Positions 8,866 to 54,709 of a DNA stretch of 64,000 nt are shown piece by piece. The stretch spans positions 72,121 through 136,120 of the forward strand of contig CAZOAL010000020.1 of assembly GCA_964577695.1 (NCBI GenBank). Reading direction: 5' to 3'. Source of the DNA: an uncultured bacterium. GTDB taxonomy: Bacteria; Poribacteria; WGA-4E; PCPOR2b. The translations under genes were made by a program, and so were the position numbers. How positions within the stretch are numbered: the first letter of the stretch is position 1; the number at the start of each line of letters is the position of its first letter. Under the pieces are notes generated by a model. That model did not search any database. It saw only the letters and a program-made list of their open reading frames with translations, and had not been told where the DNA came from.

Positions 8866-11241
8866 TTAATTCTTGCCGGGGATGACACTAAAAAATGGAA
8901 CCCGAATGGTAGGCTGTATTGCACTATTTGTTTTTACCAGGATTTCACCCGAAAGCTGGCCGGGTGGAGCTGTTGGATTGATGGTCGCTGTGAGGTGATA
9001 ACTCATCCCATCTGCTTGTGGAGCGACTTTTGCCATGACATATTTCGAGTTCGATTGGACCCCAGTGATTTTGAAGGGTTGGGAGTTGATTGGGGAAATC
9101 GTCACCTTTTTAGAAACCGCTTTTTCGCCCTCAACGAGTCCGAAAAAGAAATTTCTTGGAGAAACAGCAAACTCCCCTAAAACCTCGCCGATGACTTCAA
9201 CCGTGTGCGTTGCTTTTTTGCCCTCATAGTTGTAGTCTATCAAGAGTTTCCAGTTGAAGGGACCGATTGGCATTGACTCCAGCAGGGCAACTTCGACCCG
9301 TATAATCTCGCTTTGTTTCTCAGAAACGATGTTTGCCCTCAAATCCGTTGAATTGACGCGAACGCCAGTTATGTGAACATCCTTTCCCACTCCGCGATGA
9401 ACCGTTAACGTCTTTTTCGGCGTCCCTTTCGATGGCACTTGGCCGAAGAATACGCGAGTGGGGAACGTTGTAATTGGCACAAACGCCGTTCCTTTGAGTA
9501 TCAGTTTCACCTTGTTTTGCATCGGATCGTTTGTGTAAACATCAACGCTTTCTTCCACTTCCCGATTCTCAGAGGGAACTTTCAGAACAGCTTCAATCAT
9601 TCCATATTCTCCCGGCAGAATTTCGTTCTTTGAGACAATCGTCGCCGTGCATGAACAGGAGTGTTCAACTTTCAATATCTTCAAGATATGGGTGCCGACG
9701 TTCTTGAGTTTAAAAGTGTGTTTTACCTGGCTTCCCCCATGGGCTTCACCAAAATCATAAAGCATAGAATCGGCAAGGACGCGGGGCACTGGTTCAGATG
9801 GGGCACGTTCGGGTTTATAATCAAAGATTAAAATCTCACCGCCCCAAATCTGAGACAGTTCCTTTGATGATAGGTAATGGTCATACTTCTTAGCCGGGTC
9901 AGAAATCAAGACGCCGTCAGAGACAGCCTTTTCAAAAACGAGAAAGTGGTTTCCTTTGAGGTAGGCAATCGCAGGCATTGGAATCTTCTTTAGTGCTTTT
10001 ACGTTTGCCTTGATTCCCTTGGGGTTTAAACCCTTATACTTTGCCGCCTGGAGGAGTCCTAGCATGGTTGTTCCGACGTTTGGATCAAAGTTGGAGAGTC
10101 TGGCAAGCTCTTCAAAGGAGGCATCAACCTTCAACAATTCGCAGATGCGTAACAAACTATTTGGGCCACATGATAGAAGGAGATCCTGTTCAAGTTGAGA
10201 TTTGTCTGGGAGTGGGGGTTCATAGGATCTTTTACCTAAGCTCTCCGCGGAGATTTCTGACCCGAGTTCGACCCTTAAGCCTTGATTGAGATAAGATTGA
10301 GGGTTTATCTCAAAAAAGTGGGCTGGGAAATCAATATTAAACCGCGCTTCCTTGACAAGAACTGTTTGGACGTTATCAATTTCTGTTTCCTGTTTTTTTA
10401 TCCATCGGGTCACTGAAGGAAACCAGATTTCTCCATACTTTTGAAAATCCTCATAAACTAACTCCCATGTCACCGGAGGTCTTATTTCTTCCTGCCTTCT
10501 TTCTTCTTTACGAATGCAGAACTGTTTCTGCGGATCCACCCACACTCTTACCACGTCTGTGGGAGCTTCGGCGTTTTTTGTCCGAAATTCAAGTAGGTAG
10601 CAATCTGCATTCCCAATCACCTGATGGCCTATCAGCTTTGCATCATAAGGAACTCGATTCAGAGAACGTCCGAACAGTTCAAAATCTTGAAAGCCTTCGT
10701 ACTTTGAATTCTTATAAAATGAAATAGATTGAGCGGGGAATCGATTTAAACCTTCAAAAACCTGAGTTTGTCCATCATAAGTAAGAACTCTGAAATAATC
10801 TCCTTCCGTATACCTTGCTTCATCACTAGACGGATCTAATCCTCTACGATCGATCGCGGTCATTTTGTATTGAAAATTTCCTGAATCCCCTCCAGAATCT
10901 TGGTATTGAATATTAAAAGCAACATTCGATTCCCGATGGACACTACGCCGATTCATGGTCGCACGAAAAGGGAGTGCCTTAAGGTATATTTGCTGGAGTT
11001 CTGACTGATCAGAAGCTGAGTATTGACTCCGAATTTTTTCTTTTTCCTTTTCCATCCACGTTTGGATCTCTTCAGGTGATTTTGGGTTGGCATAGTGTTG
11101 GGTAAAAATTAATCTCATTTCACCACTTTGGATAAGATTACGAGACTGGTTAACACCGGCAATAAGTTGTTCGCGGGTTAGTTCTTCAGACACACACAAC
11201 TGGCTTATCAGAAAAAACGCGATGCAGAATATTCGGAACAT
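8866..11241 (-). CDS. secreted protein with peptidase C39-like domain and DUF1573 repeats
   Basis: Signal peptide. C39-like region (LLLSCGPNSLLRI...GNHFLVFEK). C-terminal HSCSCT-type DUF1573 motifs. Directly abuts the GT39 gene (8865/8866). Confidence 0.55.
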   Translation of the reverse strand: MFRIFCIAFFLISQLCVSEELTREQLIAGVNQSRNLIQSGEMRLIFTQHYANPKSPEEIQTWMEKEKEKIRSQYSASDQSELQQIYLKALPFRATMNRRSVHRESNVAFNIQYQDSGGDSGNFQYKMTAIDRRGLDPSSDEARYTEGDYFRVLTYDGQTQVFEGLNRFPAQSISFYKNSKYEGFQDFELFGRSLNRVPYDAKLIGHQVIGNADCYLLEFRTKNAEAPTDVVRVWVDPQKQFCIRKEERRQEEIRPPVTWELVYEDFQKYGEIWFPSVTRWIKKQETEIDNVQTVLVKEARFNIDFPAHFFEINPQSYLNQGLRVELGSEISAESLGKRSYEPPLPDKSQLEQDLLLSCGPNSLLRICELLKVDASFEELARLSNFDPNVGTTMLGLLQAAKYKGLNPKGIKANVKALKKIPMPAIAYLKGNHFLVFEKAVSDGVLISDPAKKYDHYLSSKELSQIWGGEILIFDYKPERAPSEPVPRVLADSMLYDFGEAHGGSQVKHTFKLKNVGTHILKILKVEHSCSCTATIVSKNEILPGEYGMIEAVLKVPSENREVEESVDVYTNDPMQNKVKLILKGTAFVPITTFPTRVFFGQVPSKGTPKKTLTVHRGVGKDVHITGVRVNSTDLRANIVSEKQSEIIRVEVALLESMPIGPFNWKLLIDYNYEGKKATHTVEVIGEVLGEFAVSPRNFFFGLVEGEKAVSKKVTISPINSQPFKITGVQSNSKYVMAKVAPQADGMSYHLTATINPTAPPGQLSGEILVKTNSAIQPTIRVPFFSVIPGKN

Positions 11242-12586: not shown

Positions 12587-13411
12587 TCATTTGTTCGATG
12601 CATCCTTTGCACAGCGAAATCCAATATTATAGGTTCGGCGATCTTCCTTATCATAATACCGATAAGTACATTGGAGTTGGAGGCGAATCGAATCCCAACC
12701 CCCGCCACGCAAAACCCGGTACTGCCCCTGATTAGGCCCCTTTGGGTTTTTCCCTGGGATCTGGGCATAGTAGACTTCTCCATACCAATCCGCTGTCCAT
12801 TCCCCAAGGCTGCCCGCCATGTCCATCACCCCATAAGGGCTTGCTCCTTGTGGAAAGCTGCCGATCGCTAGAATTTTCGTGACATGCGGGAAATAGTTGA
12901 GTTTGGAAAAATCCATCTCGTTTCCCCACGGGTAGATTCTCTGATCGGTGCCTCTTGCGGCTTTCTCCCATTCAGCTTCGGTTGGCAGACGCTTTCCCGC
13001 CCAGGTGGCGTAGGCGACCGCTTCATACCAACTCACGCCGATCACCGGCTGATCGGGTTCAGTCGATACTGAATTTTGCCCATATTTCAGAGGGGCTTCA
13101 ATCTGATGCTTCTGAATGAAGTCCCAGCCTTCCTGTGTCCAAAATTTCTTGTTTTTGTACCCACCGGCTAAGATAAACTCCTCATACTGGGCATTGGTCA
13201 CTTCGTGCTGGTCGATGTAGAAGGCATCTAAATCGACGGTATGGGCTGGGCGTTGGTCTGGGTTTACCTGTTCAGAGTCAGTTCCCATGATAAACTCGCC
13301 GCCTGGAATCAGTAGCATGCCTGCAGGGGCATCCGAGGAAGGAGAAGGCTGATCGCAAGCCGCTAAAATCGTCATCATGATCAAGCCTGACAAAAAACCA
13401 AGTAACCTCAT
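12587..13411 (-). CDS. formylglycine-generating enzyme (FGE/SUMF1) family lipoprotein
   Basis: Lipobox LAAC. GGEFIMGTD and RVLRGGGW motifs. Confidence 0.8.
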   Translation of the reverse strand: MRLLGFLSGLIMMTILAACDQPSPSSDAPAGMLLIPGGEFIMGTDSEQVNPDQRPAHTVDLDAFYIDQHEVTNAQYEEFILAGGYKNKKFWTQEGWDFIQKHQIEAPLKYGQNSVSTEPDQPVIGVSWYEAVAYATWAGKRLPTEAEWEKAARGTDQRIYPWGNEMDFSKLNYFPHVTKILAIGSFPQGASPYGVMDMAGSLGEWTADWYGEVYYAQIPGKNPKGPNQGQYRVLRGGGWDSIRLQLQCTYRYYDKEDRRTYNIGFRCAKDASNK

Positions 13412-14754
13412 CGTCTCACCTCCCTTCCATGCACAATCTTCGCCCAGTAACGCTCATACCCAAACCCCGGACTCATCTCAGATGTGTGGCACTGCACACA
13501 CGCCTTCGCCCGCTGCTGGCTATAGGTTGCTTGGGGATTAGCTACATGCCCACTGCCCGCCCCGTGACACGCCTCACACCCCACACTCGCCAACTGCGGC
13601 GTCTCATCCATGCTCACAAAGCCTCCAGCCTCACCGTAACCCGTCACATGACAGACGATACACTCCGGGTCATGCTCGCGTCCCTTCGCAATCAAGGTCT
13701 CGTAAGCGTGGGCATGAAGGCTACCCTTCCATACTGTGTGGTCAGCCTGATGGCACGTCTGACACGCGCCACTGCCAACATATTCAGACCCACCCTCGGA
13801 GGAGACGGTCATGACCTCCACACCCAATTGCTGGCTCATGTTCCTCACCATCGTGTGGTACAAATCCATCAACGCTCCCACCGTCGCGTCCTCGGCGTAA
13901 TCCTCCGAGAGGGCGAGGGATTGAACGTCGCGGCTGACGCCGTTCCTACGAACCTTCCCACCTTCTAAACGTAGCACGCACAGCCACTTCCCCTTCTCCC
14001 CCGGTGTCACCAGCAGGGTCTCTCCAACTTGCTGTGCCTCAACCAATGGCTGTTCACCGCCCCACGCCACCACCGCCGCGTACCCGGGCACCTGCTGTGC
14101 CAGCGATGCCGCGTCCTCAAGCCTCCCATGAAACAGCAGCACCTGCATCGCACTCTGAGAACGCAACGCTCCCAACGCATCACGCGCTGCCTCAGCCGGG
14201 TCTGTCCATGTCAACGAGGGGTCATACAGTTGCGCCTCTTTGGCGCGGGCTACAGACATCAGCCCGACGATTCCTATGCGCACCCCGCCGACTTCGCGCA
14301 CCACCCAGCCGGGGAAAAGGGGCTTTCCTTCCCAGCTCAGGTTGGCTGCCAGAAGAGGGAGGTCATGATTCATGGCTTGCGTCTGAAGGAACTCCCTGCC
14401 CAGGCTGACCTCTCCTACCCCCAGGTTCATCGCCGCGTAGTCCATCTCCCCCATGGCAGCCAGCGCCGTTTCCAGCTTTAACTCCTGCTGCCAGCCCGGT
14501 TCGGCAATTATGCCGCCGTTGTGTACCAACAAGAGCGGTTGTCCGGTTGAACGGAGTTCCGCAATTGCCGTGGCGCGTCTCGCCAGGCCTCCCAACTGCG
14601 CCAGGGCGCAACCGCACGGCTCAATAAAACCTGCCTCCTCCCCTGAAAAGACCAGGGACACCTCCCCCCCCCTGTCGGATGGCGCGGTGCAGGAGACGAG
14701 GGCGCAGGAACCTATCGCGTAGAGGAGGGTGAATGCGATGTATTTTACGTTCAT
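13408..14754 (-). CDS. lipoprotein fusing a 5'-nucleotidase/phosphoesterase-like N-terminal domain to a C-terminal tetraheme cytochrome c
   Basis: Lipobox LVSC. Four CxxCH motifs (CQTCH, CIVCH, CEACH, CVQCH). 4-bp overlap with the FGE gene. Confidence 0.7.
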   Translation of the reverse strand: MNVKYIAFTLLYAIGSCALVSCTAPSDRGGEVSLVFSGEEAGFIEPCGCALAQLGGLARRATAIAELRSTGQPLLLVHNGGIIAEPGWQQELKLETALAAMGEMDYAAMNLGVGEVSLGREFLQTQAMNHDLPLLAANLSWEGKPLFPGWVVREVGGVRIGIVGLMSVARAKEAQLYDPSLTWTDPAEAARDALGALRSQSAMQVLLFHGRLEDAASLAQQVPGYAAVVAWGGEQPLVEAQQVGETLLVTPGEKGKWLCVLRLEGGKVRRNGVSRDVQSLALSEDYAEDATVGALMDLYHTMVRNMSQQLGVEVMTVSSEGGSEYVGSGACQTCHQADHTVWKGSLHAHAYETLIAKGREHDPECIVCHVTGYGEAGGFVSMDETPQLASVGCEACHGAGSGHVANPQATYSQQRAKACVQCHTSEMSPGFGYERYWAKIVHGREVRR

Positions 14755-28538: not shown

Positions 28539-29606
28539 CTAAAAAAGCCCAGAGATCGAAATCCGCTGAGAATCTCCAAGTTCATGGGCGTTGAAAGCGT
28601 AATCCGCAAATAGCGTCGCCTCACCAAAACGGAGGCGAAGCCCAGCGCCTGCCGCAAGTTTATCCCCTTCTGCGCCGATGCGGAGGGCAACCACGTTAAA
28701 CATCCAGTATTCTGCGCCGTAACGGAAAAGCACGCTACTGCCAGAAGCATTGCCAGCCTCAAGGTCTTTCCGGTCTGTCTCCAAATCTATCCCGAATGTT
28801 GCATGACCTATCCTCGGAAAGGGGAGATGGTAAGACGCGCCAAGCCTGAAGCGGGCGTCACGGGTGAATGTCGGGCGAGCGGGCGTATCCCAACTGATTT
28901 GCGTGCCGGTGGCGTCCTCTAACATCGCCCCGAGCCTGAAGCCGCGAAATAACTCCAGCATCAAGCCCAAATCAATTCCGAAACCGCTCCCGCTGTTTTC
29001 AAAAATCGACTGTCTGAGGAGCTTGAGATTCCCACCGAGCGCAAGCCTTTGATTGACCTGACGCGCATAAGAGATCAACACCGCATTATCTGTGTTACTG
29101 AAATATTCCGCTACTTCGGGGCGATCAATATACAACTCACCGGGGTCTTTGAGCCCGTTGCCGTTCTTATCTTGAAAATCCCCCAGGATGCCATTGCCGT
29201 TGGTATCTCTGAAAGTGGTGCGAGGAATATCGTCCACACCGAGTCGGATCCAACTGATGCCCACGCTCCCAATATTTTCAATCTGCTGAACATAATTAAC
29301 GAAGTTGTAATTGACCAGGCCTTTGTTGAGAAAACTCCCCTCTCCGGTCCCAAAGGAATCAGAGTACATTGCAGAGAAGGCATGCTTTTGAACAATCCGG
29401 GTAAGTCCTGCGGGATTCCAGTACGTCGCAGTGGCATCGTCAGCGATGGACACGAACACACTCCCCATGCCCAAAGCGCGCGCCCCGACGCCGTGGCTGA
29501 GGAACTCCGCGGCATGGCTCCCTTCTTCGGCATACCCCATCGTTGAGATGGCAATGAAACCGAGGGAGAACGTGAATAGAAATACAACCCAATCTTTTTT
29601 GAACAT
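28539..29606 (-). CDS. putative outer-membrane beta-barrel protein (PorV/FadL-like)
   Basis: Signal peptide, alternating amphipathic strands, C-terminal ...ISISGLF. T9SS cargo is present in the window. Confidence 0.35.
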   Translation of the reverse strand: MFKKDWVVFLFTFSLGFIAISTMGYAEEGSHAAEFLSHGVGARALGMGSVFVSIADDATATYWNPAGLTRIVQKHAFSAMYSDSFGTGEGSFLNKGLVNYNFVNYVQQIENIGSVGISWIRLGVDDIPRTTFRDTNGNGILGDFQDKNGNGLKDPGELYIDRPEVAEYFSNTDNAVLISYARQVNQRLALGGNLKLLRQSIFENSGSGFGIDLGLMLELFRGFRLGAMLEDATGTQISWDTPARPTFTRDARFRLGASYHLPFPRIGHATFGIDLETDRKDLEAGNASGSSVLFRYGAEYWMFNVVALRIGAEGDKLAAGAGLRLRFGEATLFADYAFNAHELGDSQRISISGLF

Positions 29607-34907: not shown

Positions 34908-37115
34908 TTACTTGAGCAGCAGCATTTTCCCACTCTCATGATACGCTCCGGCTTGCAGGTGGTAAAAGTAGACCCCGCTCGGAAGCAACTCACCCACGTC
35001 ATTTCTGCCATCCCAATGAATGGCATCCGCTTTTGCCCGATAAATACCAGTAGATTTTTCCCCCAAAGCCAGCGTGCGGATGAGATGCCCTTGGGCGTCG
35101 TAAATCGTCAGGGTCACATCGGATGAAGTTGCCAATTGGTACGGAATCCAGGTGTCGGGGTTGAAGGGATTGGGAAAGTTCGGCAACAAGGCGGTGCGTT
35201 TGACCTGCCCCCAAAGCGTCGGCTGTATCTTCGCGGGCGCAACAGGGGATGCAAGGTCCACATCCCATAACTCGATTTTCTCGCCGAGCGTGATGAGGCG
35301 TTTCCCATCTCTGCTGAATGAAAAATTCCGGTCATAGCCAGGCAGGTTGAATGTTAAACTGTCCACCACTTCTCTATCCTTCCACTGAAATGCCGTGATT
35401 TTTCCCTGGTAGATTTGGCCCAGCACCGGCGTTTCCCAGAGGAGATACCCGCCATCGGGACTGAAGGTCAGCAACCGGGCTGGCACCGGATAGGAGGCGA
35501 TTTTTTCATTCTTTTGAATATCCCAGAAAAACAGGTTGCTCCCATCCGCTGAAACCAGAATCCGCCCATCTGGACTAAAAGTGAAAGACGACGCGCCTCT
35601 CTCATGTCCGCGAAGCACCAGATCGACTTTGCGCTCATCTACATTCCAGATGAAGATGTTCTTCTTGAGTGCATTACCTGCGGAAGCTAGGAACTTACCA
35701 TCGGGGCTGATGGCAAATAATCCCGCCTCCCCTCTGAACCCGACCTCCTCGCCCTGCACATTCAGGACCCTTTTTTCTGAATCGATATCCCACCCCAGAA
35801 TCTCGTGCTCATCATTGACGGCGTAGATGCGTTTGCTGTCAGGGCTGAACACTGCCCGCTTTGGTCCTTGAAAGGCGAAGTTGACGCGCTCTCTCCATTT
35901 CGTTGCGTCCAAAATGCGTACCGCATCGCCATCCGCAACGACCAGCAGTTCCCCGTTGGGGCTGAAGTCCAGCGTCCTGAAATCCAACCCCCGGCCGGCC
36001 CAGCGTTTCCGCTCGACCCCCTGCTGGATGTCCCAGAGCCGAACCGTGTCGTCGCTGTGAAGGGTGGCGAAGGACTCCCCGTCGGGACTGATGACAACGG
36101 AGCTCACCCCGCCCGTATGGGTTTCCTTTTGAATGGTGGGCTTTCGCGTCGCCACATCCCAGATTTGGATGGTTGTACTATTAGAGATGATGGCGAATCG
36201 GTCCCCCGCCGGGTGAAAACTCAAAGAACTAACACCGCCATTGACTGGAAACTGGGCGACCTCCACTTTCGCTACGATATCCCACAACCGAATTGGGCTA
36301 TTCCACCCCCAGAAAACCATCTGGTTTCGATTCGGAGTTGCGATCAGAACACTGCTCTGTATGTCCTTTATCACGTCGATTTGCTCGCCGGTGTCAACGT
36401 CCCAGAATTTCACGTCTGCCGTAAGATTGGCGACAGCAATAGAAAACAGCGTTTTCCCGTCCGCGCTGAAGGCGATTGCCGGCCAGGTGGCTTGATGGTT
36501 CAGGGTGTGGATGAGGGCTTGGGTTTCAAGGTCAAAGATCAGGATTTTGCCCCAATCGCCAGCGACCGCAATCAAGCGCCCATCCGGGCTGAAAAGGGCG
36601 TTTCTGGGTTGCTCCCCGGCCCGCCGGATGACATACCCAAAATCGGCGGCCTGCTCCTGCTTCTGGACATCCCAGAGGTAGAGGGTGCCGTCCGAGGAGG
36701 AAGAGGCTAAAAGTGCCCCATCCGGACTGAAATTGACCGAGTTCACAGCGTAAGTGTGCCCGGCGAAGGTGGCGACCTCCTGTCCCGTCGCCATCTCCCA
36801 CAACCGAACCACACCATCAGACCCACCGGATGCAAGCCATTGACCGTCGGGACTGGTAGCGATTGTATTGATCCGACCCAAATCGGCGGCAAAATGCGCA
36901 ACCTCCGTGAGTGTCGAGGCGTCATACAACCAGATGCCATCACGACCAGAGACCGCGAGGCGTTCGCCGTCGGGGGAGTAGACAATCTGGTTAATCCAAC
37001 CGTTGCCGTAGGCTCTGGTTGGGGCCTCCGGGAAAATCTTGGCCGACGCCATCCCCACAGAAACGGTCAGTTGAATGAACACGACAGAGATCAGTAATCC
37101 GTAAATCCTTCTCAT
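34908..37115 (-). CDS. WD40-repeat beta-propeller protein with C-terminal T9SS (Por) sorting domain
   Basis: Repeated ...SPDG..LAS...DG.I.LWD units. C-terminal ...LPSGVYFYHLQAGAYHESGKMLLLK is characteristic of the T9SS C-terminal domain. Confidence 0.7.
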   Translation of the reverse strand: MRRIYGLLISVVFIQLTVSVGMASAKIFPEAPTRAYGNGWINQIVYSPDGERLAVSGRDGIWLYDASTLTEVAHFAADLGRINTIATSPDGQWLASGGSDGVVRLWEMATGQEVATFAGHTYAVNSVNFSPDGALLASSSSDGTLYLWDVQKQEQAADFGYVIRRAGEQPRNALFSPDGRLIAVAGDWGKILIFDLETQALIHTLNHQATWPAIAFSADGKTLFSIAVANLTADVKFWDVDTGEQIDVIKDIQSSVLIATPNRNQMVFWGWNSPIRLWDIVAKVEVAQFPVNGGVSSLSFHPAGDRFAIISNSTTIQIWDVATRKPTIQKETHTGGVSSVVISPDGESFATLHSDDTVRLWDIQQGVERKRWAGRGLDFRTLDFSPNGELLVVADGDAVRILDATKWRERVNFAFQGPKRAVFSPDSKRIYAVNDEHEILGWDIDSEKRVLNVQGEEVGFRGEAGLFAISPDGKFLASAGNALKKNIFIWNVDERKVDLVLRGHERGASSFTFSPDGRILVSADGSNLFFWDIQKNEKIASYPVPARLLTFSPDGGYLLWETPVLGQIYQGKITAFQWKDREVVDSLTFNLPGYDRNFSFSRDGKRLITLGEKIELWDVDLASPVAPAKIQPTLWGQVKRTALLPNFPNPFNPDTWIPYQLATSSDVTLTIYDAQGHLIRTLALGEKSTGIYRAKADAIHWDGRNDVGELLPSGVYFYHLQAGAYHESGKMLLLK

Positions 37116-37137: not shown

Positions 37138-37281
37138 CCATGTCAAAAACGCAAACGCAAAAGACAGGCGTGAAACGTTGAAAGGGTGGAAGGATGGAAG
37201 ATTGGGCACCCATCCTTCCACCCTTCTATTCTTCCAACCACCAAGCGTATCAAGCAGTTTCTGAAACATGCCTCATTCCAG
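37138..37281. mobile_element. MITE-like element copy B (degenerate left end) containing the GGGTGGAAGGATGG...CCATCCTTCCACCC palindrome
   Basis: Right end reverse-complement GGCATGTTTCAGAAACTGCTTGATAC. Palindrome at 37184..37223. Confidence 0.45.
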
Positions 37282-38559
37282 CGGAATCGTCAGATCGAGA
37301 CGGTTCCCATCTCGCAAAACGACAATCGGGATTTGCGTCCCCCCCTTATAGTTCAGACGCACACGAACATTCAACTGGAGAGACGTTTCATTCTGTTCGC
37401 TACCATCAAATGACACGATGACATCGTTGTCACGGAGCCCCGCCTGACGAAGCGCTTTGCCGAAATATTGCGCTTTGAGGGCGAGACGGTCAGGCGCAAT
37501 GCCCAACGCTTTCTTCTCATCGATGGACAGTTCTGGTGCCCACAGTTCCAGTTTCGGGTGCAGCCCCCACATCGAGCCGCGCCATGAAATATCCCGTTTG
37601 CGCCAATCGCCATCAACCGTGAGCGTCGTCAGATATAATTTGTTGTCTCGGGAATACTCCACTTGCAAAGTTCCTGGTGTCGGCAAATGGTGGAGCACCC
37701 ACTGAATATCCGCCTGCGAGAGAATGATCTGACCATTGAGGGTGTGGATGACATCGCCCGATACGAGACCGCTTTTCTCGGCGAAGGAGTTAGGCAGGAT
37801 TTCCCTCACCTTCGTTCCTTCGTCCACATCCATCAACAGTCCAACGTTTTCGGGAAGCGGATAAACCCAGATCTCATCCTGCTTAAAGGTCCCTTCGGTG
37901 TATTCGACATCACGAATCCCTTCGTAGACCTCATGGCAGTGGATACAGCCTTCCGCCTGCTCTTTAGGATCGCCGTGGCGTTTGGACTGCAATTTGGTTT
38001 TCAGCGGGGTAATCTCTTGAACTGACTTGAAACGCGGTTCAGGACCCCGTTTCCCTTCAAACAGAGGGCGGTTGTTCGGGTAGTCCGCGTGAAGTTCGAG
38101 GGCTTGTTTCATTGCCTTCTTCAGAGAAGCCAACGATATATGCGTCATTCCATCCCGAGCGGCGCGAGTTCCATATCGCCCGTAAATCGTCCCGTCGGCG
38201 TTCATGAAAAACGCTGACCATGTCAGGTCGTAATCGAACTGAAAGAGGTTCAAGTCCGCATCATTCATGCGCACAATGCGCACAGGGACAAACTGTTTTG
38301 AGAGTTCCGTTAATTCTGAGTCGAGACGAGCAACCTGCCCGTCGAAGGCTTTGCAAGCCATTCAGGGGACTCAGCGAAAAAGAACAAAAAGCGGTTTCCC
38401 TTCGCTCTTGGCTTTGGTGACCGCTGCCTGGAAATCGTTGTAAATCCAGTGGTCTCCGACCTCAAAGTCTTTCAGTTGCTCCTGAAGATTCTGAGCGTAA
38501 GCAATCCACAAGATCGATAACAATAAGATCGGCAGTAAAAACACAACACGTTTTCGCAT
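37273..38559 (-). CDS. secreted TlpA/DUF255-like thioredoxin-fold protein with two C-terminal PDZ domains, carrying two in-frame TGA codons (38371-38373 and 38362-38364) at the positions of the CxxC cysteines; candidate U-V-P-U selenoprotein
   Basis: ORFs 38371..38574 and 37273..38361 are in the same frame, separated only by TGA-GTC-CCC-TGA. Context ...KPLFVLFR-U-V-P-U-MACKAF... aligns with F.A.WC-VP-C of TlpA/ResA and STCHWCHVMA of DUF255. Signal peptide MRKRVVFLLPILLLSILWIAYA. Confidence 0.5.
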
Positions 38560-38620
38560 AATAAAATCCTCCAAAAATAAGGGGCTGTTTCATTTCCCCC
38601 AACATGAGTTGACAGTTTGG

Positions 38621-39611: not shown

Positions 39612-42600
39612 ATGAAAAATTATACATATCCAGAAAAGCACGGTCTATACGACCCAGCTTATGAGCACGACAGTTGTGGTGTGGGGTTTATCGCCCACAT
39701 CAAGGGAAAACGTTCACATCAGATTATTCTTGACGCCAATCAAATCCTGTGCCACATGGACCACCGCGGGGCCCGCGGCTGCGAAGTAAATACCGGTGAT
39801 GGCGCTGGCATACTCACCGCACTGCCGCATGAATTTCTGAAGCGGGTTGCGGCTGAAGAACTCAACGTCGATCTCCCCGCCCCCAATTATTTTGCCGCGG
39901 GGATAGTTTTTCTGCCAACTGATGCGGTAGAACGACAATTTTGCAAAAGAACCGTTGAGAAGATTATTGCCGAACAAGGGCAAAAATTCATCGGTTGGCG
40001 GAGTGTGCCCGTCAATCCAGACGATGCGGATATTGGCCCATCTGCACGAGCAGGCGAGCCAGTTATTGAGCAACTGTTCGTCGCCGCTGATGACAAACTG
40101 GAACCCGAAGCTTTTGAGCGGCAACTCTATGTCATTCGCAAGCGGGCGAGCCATCAATTGCGTATCCATAGTGGACTGCGCCAGGCACGTATGTTTTACA
40201 TTTGCACGCTCTCAATGAAGGTTATCGTTTATAAGGGACAGTTAATCCCAAGTCAGTTGATGCTCTACTATCCTGATCTACTTGAGCCAGATTTTAAGTC
40301 ACACCTGGCCATGGTCCACTCACGATTTTCGACCAACACCTTTCCATCCTGGGATCGCGCGCACCCGAATCGCTTTATGTCCCATAACGGCGAAATTAAC
40401 ACGCTACGCGGCAATACCAACTGGATACATGCCCGCCAGGGCGTGATGCAAAGTGAACTGTTCGGAGATGACTTGAAGAAACTGTTCCCGATTATCGAGC
40501 CTGACTGCTCCGATTCAGGTAACTTCGACAACGCTTTGGAACTGCTGCTCATGGCGGGGCGTTCACTACCCGAAGCTGTGATGATGATGATTCCGGAGGC
40601 ATGGGAGAACCATGAGTCAATCTCGCCGGCCAAACGTGCTTTCTATGAATATTATTCTTGCCTTCAGGAACCGTGGGATGGTCCTGCGTCGATTGCGTTC
40701 AGTGATGGCCACTACATCGGCGCCGTATTAGACCGCAACGGTCTACGTCCGAGTCGTTATTATGTCACGCACGATGATCGGGTGATTATGGCGAGTGAAG
40801 TCGGCGTGTTACCGGTGCCGCCGGAGCAGGTCAAGATTAAAGGGCGTCTACAGCCCGGTCGCATGTTCCTGGTTGATTTTGAACAGGGACGATTGGTGCC
40901 TGACGATGAACTCAAGCATGATATTGCCACACGCAAGCCTTACGGCGAGTGGTTAGAAAGACAGCGCATCCGATTAAGCGAACTCCCAAAAACCGAATCG
41001 CCATGGGAGGGCGAGGCTCCTGCCGAGTCCTACGATATAGACGAATTGTTGACCCGGATGCAGGCTTTCGGCTACACCGTTGAAACGCTAGAATTTATGC
41101 TGAAGGGGATTGTGGAATCGAAGAAAGACCCCGTTGGATCGATGGGCAACGATGCCGCATTAGCGTGCTTATCGGATACGCCGCGTATGCTGTACGACTA
41201 CTTCAAACAGTTGTTCGCACAAGTGACGAATCCGGCGATTGACTCCATCCGTGAAGAAATTATTATGACGCTTGAGTGCTTCATCGGTCCCGAAGGAAAC
41301 CTGTTGGAAACAACAGAGGCGCAGTGCCACCGCTTGCGAATCCCGGAACCGATTCTGACCAATGAGGAGCTCGCGACGATTAAACATCTGGATTACCGGG
41401 GATGGCGGTCAAAAGTCATCGACATGACTTACCCACGGACTGAAGGCGTCATGGGGCTAGAGCCTGCTTTGGAACGCATCTGTGAGGAAGCGACTGCGGC
41501 GATTGAGGAAGGCATTCAGCTAATCGTCCTCTCTGACCGCAACATGGGGCCAAACCGCGTGGCAATCAGTTCCCTGCTCGCTACAGGGGCTGTGCATCAC
41601 CACCTGGTACGCACGGAGAGTCGCACCCGCATCGGTATTGTGGTAGAGAGTGGTGACGCCCGCGAAGTCCATCACTTCTGCTTGCTAGTTGGCTACGGTG
41701 CTGACGCGATTAACCCATACATCGCTTTTGAGTCCCTATACCAGTTAAATCGGGATGGGGCGTTCGAGAAGGATATCACCGACGATCAACTGCTTGAGTC
41801 CTACATTGAGGGCGTTTGCAAGGGGATTTTGAAAGTCACGTCCAAAATGGGCATCTCGACTCTGGCAAGCTACAAAGGGGCTCAGGTATTTGAGGCCGTC
41901 GGTCTGAATAGCGGTGTTGTTGACCAGTGCTTCGCCGGGACTGCCAGCCGTATCCAGGGGGTTGGCTTCGATGTCCTCGCCATTGAAGCATTGCGTCGGC
42001 ATGAACTGGGGTATCCAACCCGCGAAATTGTTCGTATGCCTGTGTTGCCCAACGACGGACAGTTCCACTGGCGTAGCAGCGGGGAACAGCACCTATATAA
42101 CCCGGAAACTATCATGGACCTGCAACTCGCGGCTCGAACGAACAGCCGCGCGGCCTACGAAAAGTTTGCAGCGTACATTAACGATTATAACCGCAATCGA
42201 TGTACGTTGCGTGGGCTACTGATGTTCAAGAAGGGGGTTCCGATTCCATTAGAAGAAGTTGAACCCGCCAAGGAGATTGTCAAACGATTCTGCACCGGTG
42301 CGATGAGTTTTGGCTCGATCTCAAGAGAAACTCACGAAACACTAGCGATTGCGATGAATCGCCTGGGCGGTAAGTCCAACACAGGCGAGGGTGGCGAGGA
42401 CTACGAACGGTTTAAGCCATTGCCCAACGGTGACAGCAAGCGGTCCGCCATCAAGCAGGTTGCCTCCGGTCGATTCGGCGTAACGTCCTGGTACCTGACC
42501 AATGCCGACCAGCTTCAAATCAAGATTGCTCAAGGTGCCAAGCCCGGCGAAGGTGGTGAGCTACCCGGTTATAAGGTCAGCGAAGAGATTGCCGCGACAC

Positions 42601-44168
42601 GCCATACGACGCCGGGGGTAGGGCTCATTAGCCCACCGCCGCACCACGACATCTACTCCATTGAAGACCTCGCGCAACTCATCCACGACCTGAAGAACGC
42701 CAATCCATCGGCACGGATTAGCGTGAAACTGGTCTCCGAAGTGGGTGTGGGTACGATTGCCGCAGGTGTGGCGAAAGGGCATGCCGACCATATCCTGATT
42801 TCTGGCCATGAGGGAGGGACTGGGGCTTCACCGTGGACCTCGATTATGCACGCTGGCTTACCGTGGGAGCTGGGAATTGCTGAAACGCACCAGACATTGG
42901 TGATGAATGACCTTCGCTCCCGTGTGCGATTGGAGACTGACGGCAAGCTGTTGACGGGACGTGACGTGGTCATCGCGGCACTGCTGGGCGCTGAGGAATT
43001 TGGCTTCGCAACTGCGCCATTGATTACGCTAGGTTGTATCATGATGCGGAAGTGCCACCTGAATACCTGTCCGGTGGGTGTCGCTACGCAAGACCCTGAA
43101 CTTAGGAAGAAATTTACCGGCAAGCCTGAGCACGTCGTCAACTACTTCTTCATGGTCGCTGAAGATGCACAGAAAATTATGGCAGAACTCGGCTTCCGCA
43201 CATTTGACGAAATGATTGGGCGTGTCGATATGCTTGAGGCAGACAAAGCAATTGAACACTGGAAAGCCAAGGACCTGGACCTGACACCGATTCTAACGCC
43301 AGCGCGAAAGCTTCATCCGGGAGTGGAAGTTTACTGTACCATCAAACAGGACCACGGGTTGGAGAGAGCGTTGGACAATGAATTGATTCAGTTGGCTAGA
43401 CCTGCCTTGAAGCGAGGTGAAAAGGTTTACATTGATTTGCCTGTCCAAAACATCAACCGCGTTATCGGTACGATGCTCAGTCACGAAGTGTCAAAGGTTT
43501 ACGGTGCTGAAGGCTTGCCGCGGGACACAATCCACATCAAACTTAGCGGCTCTGCCGGTCAGAGTTTAGCCGCCTGGTTGGTCTCCGGCGTCACCATTGA
43601 GCTAGAAGGCGATGCGAATGACTATGTAGGCAAAGGCCTGTCCGGCGGGGTACTGATTGTATATCCGCCGAAAAACGCCACCTTCAAGCCCGAAGAAAAC
43701 ATCATCATCGGTAATGTGGCGTTATACGGTGCGATTGCGGGGAAGGCATTTTTCCGCGGGATGGCGGCCGAGCGGTTTGCGGTTCGCAATTCTGGCGTTC
43801 ACGCTGTCATCGAAGGGGTCGGCGACCACGGCTGCGAGTACATGACCGGTGGACGAGTGGTGGTTCTCGGTTCGACGGGACGCAACTTCGCCGCAGGCAT
43901 GTCTGGCGGCATCGCCTATGTCTGGGACATTGATGGCAAGTTTGCAGGTCGCTGCAATCTGGAGATGGTCGAACTGGAGAAGATAGAAACCGACGAGGAG
44001 AAAGCCGAAGTGCGGAACCTCATCGAGTTGCACTATCGCTATACCGGTTCAGCCGTGGCGAAGCGAATCCTTGACGATTTTGATTCCTACGTGCCGGATG
44101 GATTCGTGAAGGTCATGCCCACTGATTACAAACGGGTGCTTGAGAAACAAAAGCGACGTGCTTCGTAA
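39612..44168 (+). CDS. gltB: glutamate synthase large subunit
   Basis: 1518 aa. N-terminal amidotransferase [11 protein letters not shown] and 3Fe-4S regions. GXGXG C-terminal domain. Confidence 0.95.
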
Positions 44169-53227: not shown

Positions 53228-54709
53228 ATGGGTAAAACCACGGGATTCATGGAATACAGTCGGAAAAAAGTTTATGAGCGTGTGCCTAAGGAACGTATCA
53301 AAGACTTCGATCTGTTCCTAATCCCACTTGATGAGGAGGAACGTCGTATTCAAGGTGCTCGTTGTATGGACTGCGGCATCCCATTTTGCCAGTCTGCCGC
53401 GGGGTGCCCCATCGACAACCTGATTCCCGAATGGAACGACCTCGTTTACCGCGGTCACTGGCGTGAAGCACTAGACCGACTCCACAAAACCAATAACTTC
53501 CCCGAGTTCACCGGTCTGGTTTGCCCGGCACCGTGCGAGGGGGCCTGCTGCCTGGGCATCAACGAGCTGCCCGTCACTATCAAGAACAACGAATATGCTA
53601 TCATCGAGCGTGGCTTTGAAGAGGGGTGGGTTCGACCCAATCCGCCTCGACATCGTACAGGCAAGAAAGTGGTAATCATTGGATCCGGTCCAGCCGGTCT
53701 GGCAGCCGCCGATCAACTCAACAAGGTCGGTCACACGGTAACGGTATATGAACGTGCAGACCGCATCGGGGGGCTACTGATGTACGGCATTCCAAACATG
53801 AAACTCGACAAGCGAATCGTCCAACGTCGTCTGGATGTCATGGCGGCCGAAGGTGTCGAGTTTGTTACCAACGCCCATGTCGGTGTCAATGTCGATGTCA
53901 CTATTTTGCGTGAGACGTTCGACGCGATTGTGCTCGCTTGTGGGGCGATCCACCCGCGTGATTTGCGCGTCCCGGGTCGTGAACTTCAGGGGATTCATTT
54001 TGCCGTGAAATTCCTGCACGAGAATACGAAGAGTCTATTGGATTCCGACCTTAAGGATGGGCAGTATATTTCAGCCAAGGACAAGCACGTCATCGTCATC
54101 GGCGGCGGGGATACGGGCAATGATTGCCTCGGCACATCGATGCGTCATGGGTGCAGGAGCCTGACCAACTTTGAGATCTTGCCTGAACCGCCTGCCGAAC
54201 GCGCTCCCGATAATCCTTGGCCACAGTATCCACGAATCTATCGTGTCGATTATGGCCATGAGGAAGCGGCATACGTGTTCGGCAAAGACCCGCGTGAATA
54301 CTGTATATTGACCAAAGCGTTTGTCGGCGACGGTAATGGAAATGTCAAGACTGCTCGCACCGTACGCGTTGGGTGGGAAAAAGATGAAAGTGGCAGATTC
54401 CAGATGAAAGAGATAGTGGGCAGCGAAGAGGAATGGCCTGCCGATCTCGTGTTTCTAGCCATGGGTTTTCTGGGACCCGAAGAAATCCTTGTGAAGCAAT
54501 TTGGCTTGGAGACCGATCCCCGCTCCAACATGAAGGCTGAATATGGCCGATTTGCGACCAGCATTGACGGAATCTTCGCCGCTGGCGATTGCCGACGCGG
54601 TCAGTCATTGGTGGTGTGGGCAATCGCTGAAGGACGTGGTGCCGCCCATGCCGTTGATAAATACTTGATGGGCTCCTCCGCCCTGCCAATCCCCGGTATG
54701 ATACTTTGA
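53228..54709 (+). CDS. gltD: glutamate synthase small (NADPH) subunit
   Basis: N-terminal Cys cluster CMDCGIPFC...[23 protein letters not shown] dinucleotide fold. Strong GGAGG RBS. Confidence 0.9.

Follow-up and report, generated by a model that had tools for sequence, protein, structure and literature searches.

Two open reading frames (ORFs) on the minus strand of a contig from an uncultured poribacterium (CAZOAL010000020.1, of which 64,000 nucleotides were analysed, hereafter called the window) share one frame and are separated only by TGA-GTC-CCC-TGA. This arrangement raises the question of whether the two TGA codons are genuine stops in a decayed or misassembled gene or whether they are recoded during translation, and in the latter case, which residue is inserted and which RNA elements assist. 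The reading favoured here, with a probability of about 0.8, is that of an intact gene for a secreted Trx7/PDZ protein, in which both UGAs of a CVPC motif are probably recoded, most likely to selenocysteine (Sec), aided by hairpins within the ORF.

The gene and its protein family

Translation of the minus strand from 37273 to 38574 yields ...KAKSEGKPLFVLFR*VP*MACKAFDGQ..., with both stops in frame, as originally predicted. A single gene extends from 38559 to 37273, and its sole interruption, TGA-GTC-CCC-TGA, is located at the CVPC cysteines. The earlier claim that the TGAs fall on the cysteines of a CxxC motif was borne out by the Cys-containing homologues, which read FRCVPCxxC at exactly these positions. 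Read through, the redox motif of the Trx7 domain becomes U63-V-P-U66-x-x-C69 (Sec predicted). The features of the gene are as follows:

37273..38559, minus strand: read-through coding sequence of 428 codons (signal peptide, Trx7 domain, helical linker, two PDZ domains)
38371..38574 and 37273..38361, minus strand: upstream and downstream ORF, both in the ORF list
38568..38572, minus strand: GGAGG, Shine-Dalgarno-like, read from the sequence
38491..38559, minus strand: predicted Sec-type signal peptide MRKRVVFLLPILLLSILWIAYAQ, read from the sequence
38200..38448, minus strand: Trx-like domain Thioredoxin_7 (PF13899), Pfam, residues 38-120
38371..38373, minus strand: UGA1, codon 63, first Cys position of CVPC
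38362..38364, minus strand: UGA2, codon 66, second Cys position of CVPC and the Sec position given in reviews (CxxU)
37933..37947, minus strand: C205-I-H207-C208-H209, CXXCH-like, in the helical linker
37282..37824, minus strand: two tandem PDZ domains, approximately residues 246-313 and 340-426, Pfam PDZ_2 stretches
37275..37273, minus strand: the gene's own stop, TGA

The likely start codon, judged from the sequence, is the ATG at 38559 with GGAGG 8 nt upstream. The N-terminus encoded from there resembles a Sec-type signal peptide, and the aligned homologues possess similarly hydrophobic N-termini. Together with the two PDZ stretches and the homologue alignment, this agrees with the original description of a secreted thioredoxin-fold protein with a signal peptide in front, two PDZ domains behind, and TGAs at the CxxC motif.

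The protein is a member of a known family, NF041199 ("Trx7/PDZ domain-containing (seleno)protein", NCBIfam), and the family is therefore not new. With U replaced by C, the profile was matched with 454.4 bits (cut-off 300), residues 37-426 covering profile positions 1-389 of 390. The family architecture, Thioredoxin_7 followed by two PDZ domains, is present, and the second C-V-P-C position, reserved for Sec or Cys in this family, is occupied by UGA2 (TGC, TGT, or TGA in homologues). The CIHCH motif of the linker is invariant in two alignments (A1, 14 sequences; A3, 96 sequences). The family's prediction as a CxxU selenoprotein dates from a 2008 paper on ocean metagenomes (GOS), in which the "putative secreted serine protease MucD" with a CxxU motif is probably the same family. 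In reviews of 2022 and 2026 it figures as a CxxU family with a single Sec; the UxxU variant with two UGAs and its pair of hairpins are not part of these listings.

An AF2 model of a homologue (pLDDT 93) shows the fold. For the PDZ tandem the matching structures are DegQ/DegP; for the Trx part they are DUF255/DsbH-type structures and a protein related to cytochrome c biogenesis that is exported (3f9u). A sequence search of the PDB matched the PDZ region only and returned no solved structure of the NF041199 family. The original assignment to TlpA/ResA-type oxidoreductases holds for the shared CVPC motif, not for family membership by HMM: at E<=0.1 the Pfam matches of the Trx family comprise Thioredoxin_7 and a weak Thioredoxin_2 (E=0.079), and the Redoxin, AhpC-TSA, and Thioredox_DsbH (DUF255, PF03190) models are not among the matches listed.

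Conservation of the two TGA codons

The earlier note had proposed to inspect homologues for Cys, Sec, or mixed codons. Among 81 genome loci (80 species and the window) the CVPC positions are encoded by Cys/Cys in 69 cases, TGA/TGA in nine, and TGC/TGA in three; the UxxC form was not seen in this set. The nine TGA/TGA carriers span Poribacteria and Planctomycetota. In metagenomes, 29 of 120 hits carry TGA at the position of UGA1, and these contigs have TGA at both positions. Neither TAA nor TAG occurs at either position in the 81 genome loci or the 120 metagenome hits. The argument that two nonsense mutations precisely at both cysteines would hardly arise by chance is reinforced by this recurrence.

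Decay or an assembly error would leave as the true product either a 362-aa ORF starting from the ATG at 38361 or nothing. Gene callers do split the gene, two relatives (P0014, P0060) appear in public records as truncated "PDZ domain-containing proteins", and one metagenome copy (L165) harbors extra stops. Against this, the same two TGAs are found with frames intact on either side in the eight other species and in the 29 metagenome contigs, the in-frame conservation upstream of them (...GKPLFVLFR) is retained, and a second, independent assembly (L148) with 98.8% identity over the gene keeps both TGAs. Met follows UGA2 in the window and in this near-identical strain copy alone, the genome relatives having R, Q, H, E, K, or A instead; a downstream start codon is hence not conserved, and a product from 38361 would be devoid of signal peptide and active site. 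Furthermore, the hairpins described below co-vary with the TGAs. Taken together, the comparison strongly favours recoding of both TGAs, and a pseudogene or sequencing artefact appears very improbable.

Reassignment of TGA throughout the genome, e.g. to Trp or Gly, has no specific observation in its favour. TGA terminates 15 of the 35 long ORFs of the window, this gene included, in line with the original remark that it serves as a normal stop. A scan for further TGA-split ORFs in the window gave no other convincing case, and the in-frame TGAs are confined to Cys positions. Such a reassignment can be regarded as next to impossible.

Hairpins downstream of the UGA codons

Two stem-loops follow the UGAs within the coding sequence:

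38347..38359, minus strand: hairpin A, GGCUU-GCA-AAGCC, the hairpin of the original prediction, between UGA2 and hairpin B
38325..38343, minus strand: hairpin B, GACGGGC-AGGUU-GCUCGUC, 18 nt after UGA2 and 27 nt after UGA1

Hairpin B, with the consensus GACGGGC-AGGUU-GYYCGUC (7 bp, loop AGGUU, coding for D-G-Q-V-A-R), is common to all Sec forms examined, does not differ between CxxU and UxxU forms, and is not found in Cys forms. It occurs in 12/12 Sec-form genome loci with a mean of -9.65 kcal/mol, compared with -2.35 kcal/mol for the region in the 69 Cys forms (p=4e-8; as the sequences share ancestry, this and the following p-values overstate independence). Its base pairs are formed in 98.1% of cells, compared with 28-63% in slid controls, and 47 cells are compensatory, i.e. 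changed on both sides; the retrieval pattern for metagenomes fixed part of the 5' arm, and the search-independent parts are the 3' arm and the slot of hairpin A. One compensation combines a synonymous change (Asp, GAC to GAU) with a non-synonymous one (Arg to His, CGU to CAU). The loop bases AGGU are invariant in 115 sequences. Hairpin B is hence a Sec-form-specific structure with covariation.

The start of the hairpin B loop is 25 nt from UGA2 and 34 nt from UGA1. In bSECISearch, the apical loop is expected at about 16-37 nt from the UGA, a range that accommodates this in-ORF stem-loop. The bSECIS loop rule, as quoted in a 2026 study of UXXU hydrogenases, is obeyed by hairpin B (A-G-G-U-U) and, in 32 of 34 UxxU sequences, by hairpin A. 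No Rfam family was matched anywhere in the window at gathering thresholds. Judged by sequence comparison, hairpin B is the main SECIS-like element and the candidate SelB-binding SECIS.

Hairpin A is present as described in the original prediction, which gave its location in plus-strand positions and suggested that it might be part of a bSECIS. It proved to be a real feature specific to UxxU forms; the conserved SECIS-like element, however, is hairpin B. The stem of hairpin A begins 11 nt downstream of UGA1, and its loop contains the UGC codon of Cys69. The corresponding slot is far more stable in UxxU sequences (-5.25 kcal/mol, n=34) than in CxxU (-1.89, n=80) or CxxC forms (-2.10, n=69), with p about 1e-11 to 1e-12. 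The slot also exceeds the stability of synonymous recodings in 34/34 UxxU sequences (-2.05, p=1.2e-10), and CxxU forms show no such excess (p=0.18). These UxxU slots encode 27 different peptides by many different stem sequences. Their loops start 13-17 nt (mode 16) after UGA1, and in 32 of the 34 the first or second loop base is G. Column-wise, 47% of cells pair, no better than in slid controls; the signal is seen by folding each sequence separately, not in alignment columns. This pattern of stability indicates selection on the RNA that appears to be tied to the first UGA. An outer stem enclosing both hairpins, present in the MFE structure of the window sequence, was dropped, as it recurs in only 11/34 UxxU and 25/80 CxxU sequences.

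It could be argued that one SECIS, hairpin B, serves both UGAs and that hairpin A is a by-product without a role in recoding. Both UGAs lie at suitable distances from the loop of hairpin B, and the loops of hairpin A are devoid of its AGGU. A single downstream SECIS has also been proposed for UXXU hydrogenases (2026 study). A by-product would, on the other hand, hardly show such an excess of stability in UxxU over CxxU and CxxC forms, nor would it surpass synonymous recodings in every UxxU sequence across so many peptides and stems. A single-SECIS arrangement is for these reasons considered unlikely.

Proposed decoding and comparison with known systems

According to the preferred reading, both UGAs would be recoded in translation, most probably to Sec. 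Hairpin B, shared by CxxU and UxxU forms, would act as the SelB-binding SECIS, and hairpin A, selected in UxxU forms only, may render decoding of the upstream UGA possible. Hairpin A might do so as a second, dedicated SECIS, its loop beginning some 16 nt downstream of UGA1 with G as the first or second base, or by compacting the spacer such that hairpin B comes to lie at a workable distance from UGA1. As the loops of hairpin A (GCAA, GCA) differ from the invariant AGGU of hairpin B, it may not bind SelB. The most specific version, in which two UGAs 9 nt apart are both read as Sec via two tandem hairpins and each change of the first Cys codon to UGA is accompanied by the emergence of hairpin A, is put forward as a tentative possibility. 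If it holds true, a bacterial UxxU motif served by two hairpins would here be described for the first time, and the product would be a periplasmic diselenide-site enzyme fused to a DegP-like substrate-binding PDZ pair.

The residue inserted at one or both UGAs could, alternatively, be Cys, delivered by a SECIS-dependent Cys-accepting tRNA (tRNA-ReC / SelC*) and resulting in CxxU, UxxC, or CxxC. This was explicitly raised by the 2026 hydrogenase study, in which tRNA-ReC-like genes were reported in ~56% of UXXU genomes as opposed to ~2% of other Sec-type genomes. The window harbors no tRNA by ARAGORN and nothing else that would identify the decoder, and the 38 related loci yield only a tRNA-Lys. 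Then again, the second CVPC position is already an accepted Sec site in the family (reviews), hairpin B is identical in CxxU and UxxU forms, and maintaining a costly UGA plus an RNA structure merely for Cys is less parsimonious, with TGC/TGT one mutation away and in use in 69/81 relatives. Cys insertion is thus judged to be distinctly improbable, and Sec remains the favoured residue.

Genes of the Sec machinery were searched for around the locus: selA, selB, and selD were absent from the 64-kb window (NCBIfam scans of 30 window ORFs), and these genes as well as tRNA-Sec were absent from the flanks of the 38 related loci. Poribacteria are among the phyla reported to possess Sec-type hydrogenases (2026 UXXU hydrogenase study), and SelA and SelB were reported to co-occur in sponge-symbiont bins. 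Comparison of 17 loci showed no conserved neighbourhood, and gene context therefore gives no clue to function. An UshA-like (seleno)protein (13408-14754) was considered as a second selenoprotein of the window and rejected, as it is the Cys form (EPCGCA).

The protein is a putative selenol/thiol-disulfide oxidoreductase with a Trx-like domain where DegP/DegQ have their protease domain, and the DegP/DegQ-like PDZ pair would hold substrate polypeptides. Being secreted and of Trx fold, with a probable diselenide and a third Cys close by, it would lend itself to a test of the idea, derived from work on selenoglutathione, that diselenides catalyse oxidative protein folding efficiently. The family moreover allows CxxC, CxxU, and UxxU forms to be compared as they occur in nature, the main SECIS being identical. 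How bacteria decode two UGAs three codons apart was raised as an open question in the 2026 UXXU hydrogenase study; since the extra hairpin occurs in the UxxU state only, the question becomes directly testable with reporter constructs. For annotation, a simple rule, TGA-GTN-CCN-TGA followed by a GACGRRC-AGGU hairpin, would recover the UxxU members, which public records now present in split or truncated form under the name "PDZ domain-containing protein".

Several known systems share parts of this arrangement. HtrA proteases (DegP/DegQ) and RseP possess a trypsin-like or metalloprotease domain, which is replaced here by a Trx-like redox domain; HtrA profiles match the PDZ region only (50 bits, cut-off 416), and no Trypsin match was found in Pfam. 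Compared with TlpA/ResA/CcmG and DsbD-gamma/DUF255 (Thioredox_DsbH) proteins, the present one shows an additional third Cys (CxxCxxC), the invariant CxHCH, and two PDZ domains.

A UxxU motif in a thioredoxin fold is shared with SelL of aquatic eukaryotes and with bacterial SelL-related redox proteins. SelL is Prx-like and devoid of PDZ domains, and a eukaryotic SECIS in the 3'-UTR serves both of its UGAs; the profile of the SelL-related redox proteins (NF040769) reached 16.5 bits here, far below its cut-off of 120. Shchedrina and colleagues are said to have named a diselenide, in 2007, as the expected oxidised state of the SelL UxxU, a state that U63 and U66 may also adopt.

The original view of UxxU as a rarity of SelL-type proteins turned out to be too narrow. 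In bacteria, the motif has also been reported in a Prx-like thiol:disulfide oxidoreductase (UxxC/UxxU), the FmdB family, a putative MerA-like metal-binding protein (NF041115), and large subunits of group 4 [NiFeSe] hydrogenases. These likewise harbor two UGAs three codons apart in a CxxC motif and a SECIS within the ORF, but belong to families unrelated to NF041199. The CxxU forms of NF041199 itself are alike in family, architecture, Sec at the second C-V-P-C position, and hairpin B; here, by contrast, the first Cys is also replaced by UGA, and an extra UxxU-specific hairpin is placed between UGA2 and the SECIS. While a single downstream SECIS was proposed for the UXXU hydrogenases, the gene described here carries a second hairpin tied to the UxxU state.

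The double-UGA gene and its product

The Trx7/PDZ gene occupies a single minus-strand frame with TGA-GTC-CCC-TGA as its sole interruption. It opens with an ATG at 38559, 8 nt downstream of a GGAGG, and closes with the TGA at 37275..37273. Minus-strand translation bears out the original observation of two same-frame ORFs split at this stretch. TGA also serves as an ordinary stop in the window, as had been stated, closing 15 of 35 long ORFs, the Trx7/PDZ gene among them. The elements discussed below are located as follows.

Features linked to the proposed recoding of the Trx7/PDZ gene (window positions)
38373..38371, minus strand: UGA1, in-frame TGA at the first Cys position of the CVPC motif, codon 63
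38364..38362, minus strand: UGA2, in-frame TGA at the second Cys position, codon 66
38359..38347, minus strand: hairpin A, GGCUU-GCA-AAGCC, between UGA2 and hairpin B
38343..38325, minus strand: hairpin B, SECIS-like, with the 3' arm GCUCGUC in the window

With Cys put in at both TGAs, the product comprises 428 aa and matches NCBIfam NF041199 (Trx7/PDZ domain-containing (seleno)protein) over its full length (454 bits, cut-off 300). The N-terminus (MRKRVVFLLPILLLSILWIAYAQ) reads by eye as a Sec-type signal peptide. Pfam places Thioredoxin_7 at residues 38-120 and then two PDZ stretches, in agreement with the domain order proposed earlier; a protease domain is absent from Pfam and NCBIfam scans. 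For the Cys homologue P0004, AF2 modeling on a 96-sequence alignment (pLDDT 93, pTM 0.90) gives a Trx-like domain followed by a helical linker and a pair of PDZ domains. The third Cys of CxxCxxC is retained almost without exception, and the linker has an invariant C-x-H-C-H motif. The protein is likely a periplasmic selenol/thiol-disulfide oxidoreductase whose polypeptide substrates would be held by the DegP-like PDZ tandem, and a diselenide would be expected on chemical grounds.

The gene neighborhood of Trx7/PDZ loci gave no clue to function. Immediately downstream in the window lies the gene for a 735-aa beta-propeller protein that carries a T9SS-type sorting domain at its C-terminus (34908..37115, minus strand), and a PorV/PorQ-family (type IX secretion) protein is encoded at 28539..29606 (minus strand); this would be unexpected if the organism is a poribacterium. 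An UshA-like (seleno)protein ORF of the NF041198 "PCGU" family (13408..14754, minus strand; 264 bits, just below the cut-off of 275) is a Cys form (EPCGCA) with several CXXCH motifs in its C-terminal part (CQTCH, CIVCH, CEACH, CVQCH). It is adjoined by an FGE-sulfatase/EgtB C-terminal-like ORF (12587..13411, minus strand) whose scores against ergothioneine EgtB (173 bits) and against selenoneine synthase SenA (146 bits, cut-off 420) stay below threshold. Residues 493-585 of a 791-aa ORF (8866..11241, minus strand) match the OS_HP2 family (seleno)protein NF041425 too weakly to pass its cut-off (69 bits, cut-off 100); since this ORF is uninterrupted, no Sec form is present there. The glutamate synthase genes GltB (39612..44168, plus strand; large subunit) and GltD (53228..54709, plus strand; small subunit) lie ~9 kb apart and are not adjacent.

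Recoding weighed against decay

Searching protein sequences yielded 2,257 relatives, the nearest named ones being from Poribacteria (46-53% identity). Full-length relatives carry FRCVPCxxC, which places the TGAs at both CxxC cysteines as predicted. Numerous others appear as 330-369 aa "proteins" whose start falls just 3' of the CVPC motif, the signature of miscalled Sec genes, and public annotations list the UxxU (TGA/TGA) genes as truncated "PDZ domain-containing proteins", e.g. P0060 (locus L004). Homologues with Cys, TGA, and mixed codons were all found.

Codons at the two CVPC Cys positions (the window together with 80 loci drawn from contigs representing one genome per species)
Cys / Cys (CxxC): 69 loci
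TGA / TGA (UxxU): 9 loci
TGC / TGA (CxxU): 3 loci

TAA or TAG occurs at neither position in these 81 loci. Of the nine TGA/TGA loci, one is that of the window, six come from MAGs of Poribacteria, and two from MAGs of Planctomycetota. Metagenome contigs were scanned with a DNA pattern that fixed part of the hairpin B 5' arm and left the 3' arm free; at least 120 matches were obtained, with at least 29 TGA/TGA and at least 91 TGY/TGA among the matches listed. The frame 5' of UGA1 (...GKPLFVLFR) is conserved at the protein level. Only the window and L148, a nearly identical strain copy, have Met directly after UGA2, so a conserved restart codon is absent. Over 1,101 nt, L148 shares 98.8% identity with the window (12 mismatches) and retains both TGAs, ruling out a one-off assembly error. 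The comparison strongly favors recoding of the double TGA over decay or error. One UxxU-type metagenome copy, L165 (2396-2461 and flanks), has extra in-frame stops upstream and just past hairpin B (VVH*) and a weakened hairpin B; the likely cause is decay of this copy or poor contig quality.

Two Poribacteria MAGs harbor CxxC and UxxU paralogues together (L003/L004 in JABGQA01, co234_bin45; L005/L008 in CAYYPK01), and UxxU forms fall in at least three places of an NJ tree. Among the 81 genome loci, Sec at the first position occurs only jointly with Sec at the second; the lack of any UxxC form in this set suggests that the motif may have passed from CxxC via CxxU to UxxU.

Two hairpins and their proposed part in decoding adjacent UGAs

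Hairpin B, in the shared form GACGGGC-AGGUU-GUCCGUC, is common to 12/12 Sec-form genome loci. Across Sec forms its slot folds at a mean of -9.65 kcal/mol, versus -2.35 across the 69 loci with Cys (Mann-Whitney p=4e-8). An ungapped alignment of 115 sequences has 98.1% of cells paired, versus 28-63% once partner columns are slid; double changes occur at two pairs (47 cells), and the loop bases AGGU are invariant. At one of these pairs, GAC to GAU, which leaves Asp unchanged, is accompanied by CGU to CAU, which turns Arg into His. In Sec forms the hairpin fixes the peptide as D-G/E-Q-V-V/A-R, and Cys forms differ there. Hairpin B would be the family SECIS, serving UGA2 in CxxU and UxxU forms.

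Conservation of hairpin A by column was rejected, with 47% of cells pairing, no better than slid controls. The 18-nt slot was then folded separately per sequence.

Folding of the slot from UGA2 to hairpin B
UxxU, 34 distinct sequences: mean -5.25 kcal/mol; 79% at or below -4 kcal/mol
CxxU, 80 sequences: mean -1.89 kcal/mol; 16% at or below -4 kcal/mol
CxxC, 69 sequences: mean -2.10 kcal/mol; 17% at or below -4 kcal/mol

The UxxU slot differs from CxxU (p=3.5e-12) and CxxC (p=3.6e-11). As a control for protein-level selection, every slot peptide was recoded with synonymous codons: the UxxU slot is more stable than its recoded mean in 34/34 cases (-5.25 versus -2.05, Wilcoxon p=1.2e-10), whereas CxxU slots have no stability excess (p=0.18). 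Hairpin A is therefore real and tied to the first UGA. The small hairpin had been proposed as part of a bSECIS; it stands as a UxxU-specific structure, and the conserved SECIS-like element is hairpin B, beginning 18 nt 3' of UGA2. Stems of hairpin A (4-7 bp) vary widely in sequence, and 27 distinct x-x-C-x-x-F peptides are represented. The loop, mostly GCAA or GCA, holds the Cys UGC codon, has G at position 1 or 2 in 32/34 UxxU sequences, and begins 13-17 nt after UGA1 (mode 16 nt). An outer stem around both hairpins in the window MFE structure was dropped, as it lacks conservation.

Hairpin A would appear when the first Cys codon turns UGA. Starting 9-12 nt past UGA1, it would lie where mRNA enters the ribosome when UGA1 occupies the A site, and would have to melt as the ribosome advances 9 nt to UGA2. 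The best spacing of the E. coli fdhF SECIS is ~11 nt. Hairpin A might act as a second SECIS or as a foldable spacer drawing hairpin B nearer UGA1; its loops depart from AGGU, a modest argument against its binding SelB directly. Insertion of Cys, via the SECIS-dependent Cys-accepting tRNA-ReC, is conceivable; Sec machinery was not found within the 64-kb window or the flanks of related loci, and Sec use by the lineage is supported indirectly.

Relation to known selenoproteins

A large CVP-U set of metagenome loci (L082-L200, e.g. L082, L083, L089, L091) has another N-terminal signature, GW...GKPLMVVxR-CVPU-xDC-xEFDGQVVRLExIKD, and does not match a regular expression for the family FQFDYD..W motif. 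Its hairpin B is the same, almost base for base, and this SECIS therefore appears common to several Thioredoxin_7 subfamilies.

In the 2008 GOS selenoproteome paper, CxxU was described for a "putative secreted serine protease MucD". This protein probably belongs to the Trx7/PDZ family, because later reviews credit the family's discovery to that paper; a 2022 review lists "PDZ domain-containing protein, Thioredoxin_7, CxxU", and a 2026 review likewise gives CxxU with a single Sec. The family is thus already catalogued, and its UxxU form, absent from the 2008, 2022, and 2026 family/review sources, is real and recurrent. The most useful novelty is the UxxU-specific hairpin A, which bears on how bacteria decode two adjacent UGAs. 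UxxU had been described as very rare and reported for SelL-type proteins; it also occurs outside SelL and is on record for bacterial Prx-like oxidoreductases, a putative MerA-like metal-binding protein, and FmdB-family proteins, as well as for GOS Prx-like 2 sequences and 16 group 4 [NiFeSe] hydrogenases.
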